A DNA stretch of 64,000 nucleotides from Eledone cirrhosa (lineage: Eukaryota), in the NCBI GenBank assembly GCA_964016885.1, contig OZ024750.1:31248001-31312000 (forward strand). Reading direction: 5' to 3'. The translations under genes and the position numbers were made by a program. The notes under the pieces are model-generated. The model saw only the letters and a program-made list of their open reading frames with translations. It made no database searches and was not told the origin of the DNA. Positions 49,906 to 58,427 of this stretch are shown here, piece after piece (position 1 is the first letter of the stretch; every line of letters begins with the position of its first letter).

Positions 49906-50017
49906 TACACACATACACACACACACACACACACACAAACATACATACATACATACATACATACATACATACATACATACATACATACATACATACATAC
50001 ATACATACATACATACA
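49906..50017. repeat. (CA)n then AAAC(ATAC)19 microsatellite; 5' flank of R4/Dong copy A
   Basis: Read directly. Confidence 0.97.
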
Positions 50018-52536
50018 AGTCAACAGCCCATAAACGACAAGTGCTAAATAGATTGTTTGCCAGAGATCCTAAATCAGTTTATCGCAGCTTCGGTGGCAAA
50101 AGCTCAATCCCTGTAAACGACACCCCTTCAAAAGAACAGGTTGAGAACTACTGGAGATCTGTATGGGAAACGGATGACGGATTCAACAGACAAGCTAATT
50201 GGCTAAAACAACTGGAACAGGACTACTGCCAACATGTCCAGACAAAACAATATGACATAGATGGGTCAATACTGGAAACAGCTCTACAGAAAATGTCGAA
50301 TAGGAAATCGCCAGGCCCAGACCTTATTACAGGATACTGGTTGAAGAATTTCACTTTCTATCGGCAAGATCTCATACGGCTGTTTACAGAAACCATTAAG
50401 GGCACACAAGAACTGCCCAGATGGTTATCAACTGCCACTACTCTCCTCATTCCCCAAAATAGCCAAACCACCCTTGCTAAAAATTACCGCCCAATTGCCT
50501 GCCAAAACATCATGTATAAATTATATACTGGGTGCCTTAACCTGTTCTTACAGGATCACTGTGCTACCAACAACATCATAACACCTGAGCAAGCTGGTGG
50601 AAAGAGGGAGGTGTGGGGTTGCATAGATCACCTACTAACTAACAAAATGATTCAGGAAAAAACAACAAAGAATCGCAGAAACATGACTGTCGTGTGGCTG
50701 GACTATCAAAAAGCATTTGATAGTGTACCTCATGGGTGGATTATTAAGGCTTTACAGTTAGCTAAAGTCCCACAACCATTAGTAGCTGCTGTTGAACGCC
50801 TGACCAAGAACTGGTACACCAATTTGATCCTTAGAGGTGAGAAGGAGCAGGTTAAGACTGATAGGATACATTACCAGAAGGGCATCTTTCAGGGTGATAG
50901 CTTGTCAGTACTACTCTTCGTTCTCTCACTGAATCCACTATCTTACCTACTCAGGAAACAAGGTGGACAAAGAAGTGGGCCCAGAAGTATCTCCCATCTT
51001 TTCTTTGTTGATGACCTGAAGTTGTATGGGCCAAATATCAATGACATCAAGAAACAATTGGACCTCATTACACAATTTTCAACCGACATCAAAATGAAAT
51101 TTGGTGAGTTCAAGTGTGCATATTTGGCAGTAAAACGTGGAAGAGCTGTGCCCTCCTCTAGAAATCTAGATATGAACGGCCTGACAATACAACCTCTGCA
51201 GTCAGGTGACAACTACAGATATCTTGGACAGGATGAGAATGTCAGATATGATGGACCCATAAATAAGGAGAGAACCAGAACTGAATACCTCAGAAGAGTA
51301 AAAAAAATATGGTCATCAGAACTGTCAGCATACAACAAATACATTGCCCACAATACCTATGCTGTGCCAATTCTAACGCCAACATTTGGCCTACTGAACT
51401 GGTCATTGCAAGAACTAAGTGAGATGGATGTTAGAACTCGAAAACTTCTCAGTGTTACTGGGAACTTTAACATCAATGGTGATGTGGATAGGCTATACTT
51501 CTCACGCAAGGAAGGTGGCCGGGGTCTAAAATCAATATTAACAACATATGAGACCCGGATAGTAACACTGAAGCAACACCTTCAACAGAGGGAAAAGGTT
51601 GGCGACCATCTTGCTCAGGTTTATGAGCATGAAAAAAGAAATATCATTAGAATAGCGACTGATCTGGAGGAGAGATATGGAATAAAGCCTGATATAAATC
51701 TCTCACCCAGAGAAATCGGAAGATCCTATTCAATGTTCAAACAAGAAAAAAAAATTGACCAATTTACAGAGAAAGTTGTGCATGGATACTTGAGGCGTAA
51801 AACACAGACCATAGAGGGGATAAACCACTCAAAAAGCCTGGCATGGAGTTCCGACAAGTTTATGACATCACACCTTGAGGGATATCTCTATGCAATACAG
51901 GAACAAGAACTCCCTACCAAATATCTGCTGCACAAAAGAGGAGGGCCAGCAGCTGACAATAAATGTAGGCTATGTAAAACAAAGATCGAGGATGTAAGCC
52001 ACATTGTTGCCGGCTGCGAAAGAATGTCATCTCGCTACTACCTCCCCATGAGACACGATGGGATAGCTAGAACCATCTGGAACGCACTTCGGAAAACAAA
52101 ATTAACAACAAACGAGGAAGAATATATTGAGACAGATGGCACTAAGGAATACTGGTGGAACCTGAAAATAAAAACTGCCACCAAATTAAAGCACAACCGG
52201 CCTGATATTGTAGTTTGGGACCACACATTGAAAACGTGTTCTGTTGTGGAGATCAGCTGCCCACTTGATGTAAACGTTGTCAGAAAAATACAGGAGAAGG
52301 AGGACATCTACGGACCATTGATGAGGAGCTTACAAATCCAGTATCCAAGATACACCTTTAGCTTCATAACCATCATTATTGGTGCTACGGGTTATATACC
52401 AACCCGCTTGGACCAAAGTATGACCGAACTTGGATTTGCGGACAAAAAGCGCAGCTCCCTAATTCATAGTCTACAAATGGCTGCGATAGCTGGCACCTTC
52501 AAAATATGCAAAACATTCTTGCGATTCAAGGGATGA
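50017..52536 (+). CDS. Reverse transcriptase / CCHC zinc knuckle / restriction-like endonuclease polyprotein (N-terminally truncated)
   Basis: Motifs KSPGPD, NYRPIAC, WLDYQKAFDSVPH, GIFQGDSLS, FFVDDLK, YRYLG, RLYFSRKEGGRGL, CRLC..EDVSHIVAGC, MRHD, NRPDIVVWD..VEISCP..EKEDIY. The first 80 codons of the ORF-track entry (49777-50016) are flank and microsatellite read-through. Confidence 0.9.
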   Translation, partial: KSTAHKRQVLNRLFARDPKSVYRSFGGKSSIPVNDTPSKEQVENYWRSVWETDDGFNRQANWLKQLEQDYCQHVQTKQYDIDGSILETALQKMSNRKSPGPDLITGYWLKNFTFYRQDLIRLFTETIKGTQELPRWLSTATTLLIPQNSQTTLAKNYRPIACQNIMYKLYTGCLNLFLQDHCATNNIITPEQAGGKREVWGCIDHLLTNKMIQEKTTKNRRNMTVVWLDYQKAFDSVPHGWIIKALQLAKVPQPLVAAVERLTKNWYTNLILRGEKEQVKTDRIHYQKGIFQGDSLSVLLFVLSLNPLSYLLRKQGGQRSGPRSISHLFFVDDLKLYGPNINDIKKQLDLITQFSTDIKMKFGEFKCAYLAVKRGRAVPSSRNLDMNGLTIQPLQSGDNYRYLGQDENVRYDGPINKERTRTEYLRRVKKIWSSELSAYNKYIAHNTYAVPILTPTFGLLNWSLQELSEMDVRTRKLLSVTGNFNINGDVDRLYFSRKEGGRGLKSILTTYETRIVTLKQHLQQREKVGDHLAQVYEHEKRNIIRIATDLEERYGIKPDINLSPREIGRSYSMFKQEKKIDQFTEKVVHGYLRRKTQTIEGINHSKSLAWSSDKFMTSHLEGYLYAIQEQELPTKYLLHKRGGPAADNKCRLCKTKIEDVSHIVAGCERMSSRYYLPMRHDGIARTIWNALRKTKLTTNEEEYIETDGTKEYWWNLKIKTATKLKHNRPDIVVWDHTLKTCSVVEISCPLDVNVVRKIQEKEDIYGPLMRSLQIQYPRYTFSFITIIIGATGYIPTRLDQSMTELGFADKKRSSLIHSLQMAAIAGTFKICKTFLRFKG

Positions 52537-52620
52537 CAATTTCTTTTCTTTTACAACCTTGCCACCAGGAAGGTGGCCGGTCAAAAAAATATACTCGAAA
52601 TTAAGAGAAAGAGAAAACAA
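50018..52620 (+). mobile_element. R4/Dong-clade non-LTR retrotransposon, family 1, copy A (5'-truncated, ORF uninterrupted)
   Basis: RT-CCHC-RLE ORF, short 3' UTR with hairpin GCCACC-AGGAA-GGTGGC (52561-52577), and (TACA)n on both sides. Confidence 0.92.
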
Positions 52621-52716
52621 ACATACATACATACATACATACATACATACATACATACATACATACATACATACATACATACATACATACACACATACAT
52701 ACATACAGACAGACAA
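52617..52716. repeat. ACAAAC(ATAC)17 plus degenerate (ACAC/ATAC/AGAC) tract between copies A and B
   Basis: Read directly. Confidence 0.97.
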
Positions 52717-56804: not shown

Positions 56805-57385
56805 GGTGGCTGCCAACTCGTTTTCGAGTACGGCCACTACTTTATATCCATGTAGGAGAACCCCTTCCGATGCGCTGAACGAGTGTGACTTTTTAGTCCA
56901 GCCAGCGACTTGAAAACTCTGGTACAAACTCTACACTTGTGACAATTATTGACACATAGTGCTGGGCTCATGGTACCATGTGACGACAAGTGCAGAGAGA
57001 TCTCCAGATATAAAGCAATGCCTGTGCCGTGAAGCTTTTTAGTGAGCAAAGGCACTGCACAAAGCCAGTCCCACTCTCTTAACCAATATGATATTTACCA
57101 AAAAGAACAAGTCAACATCATTGGATACCATCAGGGTTGCAGGTGTTATATCAGAGTTTTCCTTCTCCTAGAATTCTGCCTTGACAAAGGCTAAGGGGTC
57201 ATCTCTCACGGTGATTTTGGACGGCCATTGACTCTTAAGAGCTCCTTTGCCAGGTTTTGTTTTTAGTCCTGCAGGATGTCCAAAGTCACCCTCCTCACCA
57301 AGAAACCTTGGTAGGGTTGCCAGTTTAGTTGCCAAGGACCCGATCATGGGACAGGTTGTACTGGGATACATGTTACTAGTAGCAC
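56805..57385 (-). mobile_element. Non-autonomous bipartite RTE-derived element, copy 1 (longest, ~580 bp), with (ATGT)n tail
   Basis: Minus strand carries the RTE 5'UTR-type motif CTAGGAGAAGGAAAACTCTGA, then a C-terminal C2H2 CRVCTRVFKSLAGLKSHTRSAH, a stop, hairpin ACTCG-AAAA-CGAGT and GCAGCCACC(ATGT)n. No RT or endonuclease sequence lies between. Confidence 0.75.
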
Positions 57386-57424
57386 CATACATACATACAT
57401 ACATACATACATACATACATACAT
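57386..57424. repeat. (CATA)n tract between RTE-derived copy 1 and R4/Dong copy C
   Basis: Read directly. Confidence 0.97.
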
Positions 57425-58184
57425 CACACCTTGAGGGATATCTCTATGCAATACAGGGACAAGAACTCCCTACCAAATATCTGCTGCACAAAAGGGGAGG
57501 GCCATCAGCTGACAATAAATGTAGGCTATGTAAAACAAAGATCGAGTATGTAAGCAACATTGTTGCCATCTGCGAAAGAATGTCATCTCGCTACTACCCC
57601 CCCCTCCATGAGACACGATGGGATAGCTAGAACTATCTGGAACGCACTTCGGAAAACAAAATTAACAACGAACGAGGAAGAATATATTGAGACAGATGGC
57701 ACTAAGGAATACTGGTGGAACCTGAAAATAAAAACTGCCACCAAATTAAAGCACAACCGGCCTGATATTGTAGTTTGGGACCACACATTGAAAAGGTGTT
57801 CTTTTGTGGTGATCAGCTGCCCACTTGATGTAAACGTTGTCAGAAAAATACAAAAATACAGGAAAAGGAGGACATCTACGGACCATTGATGAGGAGTTTA
57901 CAAATCCAGTATCCAAAATACACCTTTAGCTTCATACCCATCATTATTGGAGCTACGGGTTATATATCAACCTGCTTGGACCTAAATATGACTGAACTTG
58001 GATTTGTGGACAAAGAGCGCAGCTCCCTAATTCATAGTCTGCAAATGGTTGCGATAGCTGGCACCTTCAAAATTTGCAAAACATTCTTGCGATTCAAGGG
58101 ATGACAATTTCTTTTCTTTTACAACATTGCCCCCAGGAAGGTGGCCGGTCAAAAAAATATACTCGAAATTAAGAGAAAGAGATA
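57421..58184 (+). mobile_element. R4/Dong family 1, copy C (3' ~760 bp only, frameshifted)
   Basis: Highly similar to 51865-52615; frameshifting insertions near 57600 and 57850; followed by TAATACATACATACAT. Confidence 0.93.
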
Positions 58185-58427
58185 ATACATACATACATAT
58201 GTGGGTGTATGTGTGTGGGGTTATGTGTGGAAGAGGACTGTACATTGACTAAAATGAACTCATCAAAAAAATACCAAATATATATTTAAATATTTAAATA
58301 TGTCAATATATTTTCATATACAATTATTTCATTTCCCTAAACAGTTCACTATGAATTCTGGACTAAATGATAATATTATATTATTTTATAGAAAATATAG
58401 TTATTGCTTCGCGAGGGTCGAAACCCT

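Follow-up and report, generated by a model that had tools for sequence, protein, structure and literature searches.

Two Dong-type LINE families stacked in (TACA)n tracts of an Eledone cirrhosa locus and their likely targeting of this microsatellite

Three LINE copies and their (TACA)n tracts

The locus considered here lies in a 64,000-nucleotide (nt) stretch of the Eledone cirrhosa genome (NCBI GenBank assembly GCA_964016885.1, contig OZ024750.1, positions 31,248,001 to 31,312,000 of the forward strand), called the window below and numbered from its own first letter. It carries three copies, termed A, B, and C, of long interspersed nuclear elements (LINEs) of the R4/Dong kind, all three with (TACA)n at both junctions on the sense strand. 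An earlier note on this DNA had described three elements with a restriction-like endonuclease (RLE), each between such tracts, and the description is borne out for elements and tracts alike. We think it quite probable that A and C on the one hand and B on the other represent two old Dong-type families of the R4 clade, placed with the same polarity in (TACA)n, and that these families target that microsatellite.

Perfect runs of at least three TACA units occur 8 times in the 64-kb window, all on the plus strand and all inside 49942-59182; beyond this cluster, one 12-nt run was counted in 13.9 kb of nonsatellite DNA. Two nested stacks are found, A-B-D1-C in one tract and D2-D3 in another, where D1, D2, and D3 are copies of a further element facing the opposite way. 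From the left, (CA)n begins at 49906 and is followed by (TACA)19 at 49942-50017 (+). This is the genomic target on the 5′ side of A, and no 3′ end of an element precedes it; because the tract comes after unique DNA, it is not the tail of another copy. A (50018-52616, +) is a 5′-truncated Dong-type LINE with an open frame at 50017-52536 (839 aa; stop at 52534-52536) and a short, hairpin-forming 3′ untranslated region (UTR). About 25 ACAT units (52617-52715, +) are common to the 3′ end of A and the 5′ end of B (52716-56784, +), a full-length Dong-type LINE of the second family with a broken frame. Beyond B, (ACAT)5 at 56785-56804 (+) separates its 3′ end from that of D1, tail to tail, and about 10 CATA units at 57386-57424 (+) separate the 5′ end of D1 from that of C (57421-58184, +), a short 5′-truncated sister of A that is followed by about four ATAC units (58185-58199, +). 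In the other stack, 4.5 ATAC units (58892-58909, +) separate D2 and D3, and about 23 more (59094-59184, +) lie past D3, where unique DNA follows. An assembly artefact was ruled out as the origin of this arrangement, since reads of several organisms contain pieces of A, B, and D.

A and C had been taken for sister copies with different 5′ truncation points, and so they are: C is 94.5% identical to the last 750 nt of A, and its 5′ junction, which has 4 nt (ACAT, 57421-57424) in common with the tract, differs from that of A. The notion that C is a plain duplicate of A was dismissed on the strength of this different junction, the 5.5% divergence, and indels of its own. In B, the 5′ UTR runs to 52929, an ATG stands at 52930, the last stop is at 56557-56559, and the 3′ UTR occupies 56560-56784; two in-frame stops (54334-54336 and 56356-56358), together with frameshifts in the interval 54660-54905, interrupt what aligns as a single frame-broken open reading frame (ORF) to amino acids 6-1148 of a full-length homologue. 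The B and A proteins are 46.9% identical across 848 columns, and their 3′ UTRs, when compared, have no significant similarity. Thus, the diverged protein and different 3′ UTR claimed for B both stand, but to call B merely diverged does not do, since it is full length. Within B, a low-complexity linker at 53355-53528 carries a 75-nt internal duplication (87%) and a 21-nt tandem repeat, with length variants in reads. An old, rearranged B-like relic (75-76% at the nucleotide level) lies at 44635-44995, with a 3′ UTR piece ahead of a reverse transcriptase (RT) piece.

Protein architecture, relatives, and known systems

The coding region of A matches Pfam RVT_1 (E 1.9e-23), has the RT motif FVDD, and continues into a C-x2-C-x8-H-x4-C knuckle (aa 650-667) and an RLE of the form NRPD...E..P.D...K; the RLE motifs NRPDI and EISCP.D are present in both A and B. 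Across 47 aligned proteins the CCHC knuckle and RLE motifs vary little or not at all, with C650, C653, H662, C667, D730, and K761 invariant in all. Of the families shown for a set of 39 aligned proteins, none is an apurinic/apyrimidinic endonuclease (APE; Exo-endo-phos), the RLE motifs being found instead, and no N-terminal C2H2 zinc finger was seen in the B N-terminus or in any of 37 full-length homologues of A. The nearest named homologues are Argonauta hians proteins (62%, and 68% across the RT region), which would in itself point to an octopod as the probable source; against PDB sequences, R2 proteins score best (E 1e-28). By this architecture A, B, and C are classed as single-ORF LINEs with RT, CCHC, and RLE, of R4/Dong build, and the R4/Dong identity first proposed for them is supported. 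Their surroundings are neither those of strict R4, for which the target is large-subunit ribosomal DNA (no rRNA match in 49700-59600), nor those of strict Dong, for which it is (TAA)n, every junction of the window, like each of those displayed for the reads, being TACA.

The N-terminus of B includes a domain (approximately 53026-53262) that is modeled as three helices (predicted local distance difference test score 81.6). It has no Pfam match, but 13 of its 16 best structural matches are, by our own reading of the entries, of Myb/SANT type, the best having Z 6.5 and a root-mean-square deviation of 2.3 over 72 aligned residues. A profile built from it matches 38 of 101 long proteins of an insect-centered set, and the Myb/SANT-like domain and RLE motifs are conserved through the clade. 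Among RNA features, Rfam returned only microsatellite-driven microRNA matches under the gathering score, and a loose hepatitis delta virus ribozyme pattern, a crude test, had no match in the 5′ region of B or in those of two relatives, L002 and L003.

These relatives come from an alignment-based metagenome scan that covered 24 of 64 parts, from which 80 of 305 loci were kept and the ends of 10 of the 80 inspected. Seven of these 80 (L001-L007) match A at 36-48%. L002 is full length, with an intact 1163-aa frame, and starts right after (TACT)10 plus TACA variants (1-60); L003, 68% identical to it in nucleotides, terminates in (CTTA)11 (4651-4694), which is the repeat of L002 in equal polarity. 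(TACT)n, beside which these two stand, is a likely further target, for which no description was found in the literature searched. L005, a sister copy and an internal fragment, carries a 5′ inversion: its nt 1-255 match L002 at 97% in reverse orientation. L059, from the same scan, is a truncated Dong-like RT, too short for the tree, that starts directly after (TAA)13, the classic target of Dong. Other searches gave nothing related: a metagenome scan with A alone (0 of 39 stretches), viral contigs (25 stretches), and genome contigs (1 and 21 stretches); a protein search that started from a beetle homologue brought up none with Dong or R4 in its name.

The tree, a quick maximum-likelihood one, covers 58 RT regions (14 of the 80 loci and 42 picked proteins). 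In it, A, B, L001-L004, and their closer homologues form one clade (Shimodaira-Hasegawa-like approximate likelihood ratio test, SH-aLRT, 100; stem 0.56), long-stemmed and separate from the insect-type set. It joins unnamed Dong-like RTs (SH-aLRT 99), the contrast being with distant LINEs alone, as the tree contained no R2, NeSL, or HERO rows. A joins the Argonauta proteins, B is not its sister, and L002/L003 split first, with support of 88 for the other side. The earlier idea of two lineages each retargeted to TACA is less well supported: A and B are not sisters, yet both fall in one clade with basal members in (TACT)n, so that the tetranucleotide target is probably an ancestral or old trait of one Dong sublineage and not the product of two recent events. 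It probably arose from the TAA target or in parallel with it.

How these elements compare with known systems depends on both enzyme and repeat. Waldo elements belong to the R1 clade and have two ORFs, and the groups of Togen and HERO carry N-terminal zinc fingers. The published microsatellite targets are ACAY for Waldo, AC for Mino, TC for Kibi, TTC for Koshi, and TAA for Dong (PMC3812793), while Togen targets (TG)n and some HERO families are microsatellite specific (PMC4640811). Dong uses (TAA)n in most insects, molluscs, and cnidarians (PMC7998251), and the named cases, Dong of Bombyx mori, DongAg of Anopheles gambiae, DongBg of Biomphalaria glabrata, and ostracod Dong1/2, are all (TAA)n-specific (PMC7998251, PMC3812793). 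Like Dong, A and B have a single ORF with RT and RLE, lack N-terminal zinc fingers, and insert in a microsatellite (PMC7998251, PMC3812793); unlike Dong, they lie in (TACA)n, and L002/L003 in (TACT)n. The match to the Waldo target asserted by the earlier note is confirmed in that ACAY includes ACAT, so that the ACAT of A and B is one unit of the repeat used by WaldoAg1, WaldoAg2, and WaldoFs1; Waldo elements have an APE endonuclease (PMC3812793), and because A and B have an RLE and one ORF the likeness in target is convergent. Togen and the HERO families are, like A and B, RLE-type LINEs on microsatellites (PMC4640811), but A and B differ from them in repeat and clade and in having no N-terminal zinc fingers. 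Dong-R4 elements are present in cephalopods (PMC8967140, PMC9115989), including a full-length Dong in Octopus bimaculoides (PMC9115989), and are abundant in coleoids, with 51 consensus families in O. vulgaris, 5 of them recently active and accounting for 1129 insertions (PMC13282606). The available portions of PMC8967140 and PMC9115989 give no target sequence for cephalopod Dong-R4, and in those of PMC13282606 and its supplement neither “target” nor “TACA” occurs. No TACA or ACAT target for an RLE element was found in the literature searched, Repbase being outside the search; that such a target is already catalogued strikes us as doubtful without being far-fetched. A and B likely act like Dong with another repeat; elements of this kind are known, and TACA appears to be new among their targets.

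Flanks, polarity, and the choice of target

Reads from 4 of 24 listed runs were placed onto 49700-59400. In X1, summed contig depth, which is not copy number, climbs toward the 3′ end in A (27,833 to 273,603) and in B (32,612 to 436,312), and this approximately tenfold climb is that of high-copy, 5′-truncated LINE families. Junctions of such copies repeat the pattern of the window: (ACAT)5 lies directly upstream of A position 50699 (X22, 172 reads, 1 start), of A position 52465 (an X1 contig), and of B position 56149 (X22, 199 reads, 2 starts). Since three more truncated copies start straight after (ACAT)n, the repeat is not merely a tail. For joints with letters between their parts, 11 of the 12 rows shown (of 450) involve the TACA tract, 1 of the 11 being the tract joined to itself, and no strand-change joint was present among the 15 shown of 1196 joint rows. 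Of 44,856 X1 contigs, the share that continues into unlike sequence is 0 after rounding, a figure that depends on the shortest overlap that was placed and that fits repeat flanks.

The contrary possibility is that TACA is only an element-encoded tail, that 5′ tracts arise by head-to-tail template jumping or by deletions from a tail to an internal ACAT, and that insertion is otherwise without preference. This would be consistent with the single tract common to A and B, with the B-like relic outside TACA, and with the 5′ ends of C and of one read junction, which sit on ACAT or CATA words as deletion would also leave them. Against it, the tract upstream of A is preceded by unique DNA and (CA)n and not by an element 3′ end, the upstream neighbor of C is the 5′ end of D1 and not a tail, and L002 is full length yet begins right after its repeat. 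We regard this explanation as improbable; the unique DNA upstream and the truncated copies after (ACAT)n support a TACA 5′ flank that is more than the tail of an element.

A fixed strand polarity had also been proposed, and it holds for the A and B families at the junctions shown. It does not extend to the whole locus, since D occupies the same tracts on the opposite strand. D1 (56805-57385, -) is 5′-truncated and reads as a C-terminal C2H2 finger, a stop, a UTR hairpin of about 30 nt, and then (ATGT)n; D2 (58428-58891, -) has an internal deletion, overlaps the tract by 6 nt at its 5′ junction, and has lost its 3′ tail at a junction with an unrelated repeat; and D3 (58910-59092, -), 183 nt and 5′-truncated, has TACA on both sides. 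The copies are 95-97% alike, their short 3′ UTR folds as a hairpin (folding z -2.2), and their left ends are constant while their right ends vary, which is the end pattern of a 5′-truncated retroelement facing the opposite way. D has very high depth in the reads, where truncations at 57153, 57165, 57186, 57207, 58682, 58733, and 28 nt beyond 58897 are all followed by (ACAT)n. D is a fourth element, overlooked in the earlier note, and a retroelement that uses the tracts of A and B via the other strand. None of five candidates fits as its parent, its protein matching only generic multi-C2H2 proteins; that it is RTE- or CR1-like is a guess.

With three families in the same tracts, one might suppose that TACA tracts are generic sinks in which any retroelement lands or survives, with nothing family specific. 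The other interspersed repeats of the window (D14-D20, SINE-like, that is, resembling short interspersed nuclear elements, by our own reading) lie outside TACA; longer (TA)n runs are without such insertion, no A, B, or C copy being inserted in the (TA)n runs (888 nt) or the (CA/TG)n runs (124 nt) found within 39416-64000; and polarity is constant for each family in all junctions shown. We reject this supposition as very improbable.

A different matter is whether targeting, if real, is a property of the protein. R2-type elements nick their target, carry out target-primed reverse transcription, and are left with 5′ truncations. The protein of A or B would bind the hairpin of its own RNA 3′ UTR, and the repeat would be recognized probably by the N-terminal Myb/SANT-like domain plus the RLE. 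A and B would nick the (TGTA)n strand and D the (TACA)n strand, and the nick would prime reverse transcription, aided by UACA repeats at the RNA 3′ end. Synthesis would often halt early, the complementary DNA end joining the upstream repeat via 1-4 nt of microhomology. Each insertion would keep the repeat on either side and leave the site open to more hits, which would explain the A-B-D1-C stack. At the three scorable A-family 5′ junctions the overlaps with the repeat are 4, 4, and 1 nt; overlaps of at least 4 nt at 2 of 3 have p ~0.002 (null 0.026 each). The B junction at 56149 sits on an ACAT word, and its overlap is unscorable. The junction rows shown are the best supported, which possibly favors recurring junctions, and target-site duplications are unreadable inside a perfect repeat.

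The alternative is that targeting is real but mostly a matter of base pairing: nicking is relaxed, and only nicks in (TGTA)n anneal the UACA tail and prime. In its favor, the A and B families terminate in one phase (...A, then ACATACAT), and the unrelated D, with its complementary (ATGT)n tail, sits in these tracts facing the other way, as tail pairing predicts. Junction microhomology is moreover enriched in D also, 4 of its 10 junctions having at least 3 nt (p ~0.002). The conservation of the Myb/SANT-like domain and RLE motifs throughout the clade argues the other way, as does the constancy with which Dong relatives hold one repeat target over wide taxa (PMC7998251). A diverged SANT/Myb-like domain at the N-terminus of R4/Dong proteins has been argued to direct site choice (PMC7998251). 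We consider base pairing less likely as the main determinant, though the evidence here is compatible with either mechanism, and protein recognition and tail pairing may both act.

Several points weigh against targeting of (TACA)n by these two families as we read it. The six insertions of the window nest in two tracts and are not independent draws; A and B have one common tract, so that the 5′ TACA of B could be the tail of A; and the relic at 44635-44995 has no adjacent TACA tract. In the reads, joints reveal only TACA flanks, a numerator without a denominator, other flanks appearing as loose ends, and the rows shown are 24 of 6703 loose ends and 15 of 1196 joints. A share of 0.26 of X22 reads continues into unlike sequence, and a large loose end ahead of B position 56492 (6841 reads, agreement 0.35) could include non-TACA flanks. 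Among relatives, the TACT evidence is a single junction per family (L002, L003), and the L001 and L004 contigs (45-48% to A) have no TACN tract downstream, only the 9-nt ACATACATA in L001. The structural Z scores of the three-helix domain are below 8, Foldseek returned no match at E<=0.001 for models of 79 and 468 aa, and the tree is a quick version without bootstrap.

Wider meaning and other features of the window

In octopus, Dong-R4 ranks with the LINE groups that are most abundant and most recently active (PMC13282606). How RLE retrotransposons choose and change their targets is an open question relevant to R2-type gene-insertion tools. A broader proposal, which we advance tentatively, is that A, B, and their marine relatives are an unrecognized Dong subclade that switched from TAA to TACN via the Myb/SANT-like domain, and that, together with an unrelated retroelement on the other strand, they create TACA landing pads that renew themselves and may be one of the chief origins of the TACA microsatellites of octopod genomes. 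If true, this would provide a natural TAA/TACA/TACT series for the study of target change by RLE retrotransposons, and close relatives with these three targets would make the determinant, be it the Myb/SANT-like domain, the endonuclease, or the RNA tail, directly testable. A microsatellite target would also affect where insertions are placed, how many of them short-read callers miss, and the origin of TACA markers.

An unrelated repeat flanks the D2-D3 stack in two copies, inverted and in part permuted (58200-58429 and 59215-59500; 38 nt identical), and the loss of the D2 tail at its junction with this repeat suggests local rearrangement. Look-alikes of RTE-type LINE 3′ regions, recognized by eye, lie outside TACA at 63400-63860 and 42660-42890. 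Window positions 1-39415 are occupied by a 50-bp satellite of approximately 789 copies (94% matches), and a second satellite, with a 64-bp unit in 22 copies, is found at 61510-62923.

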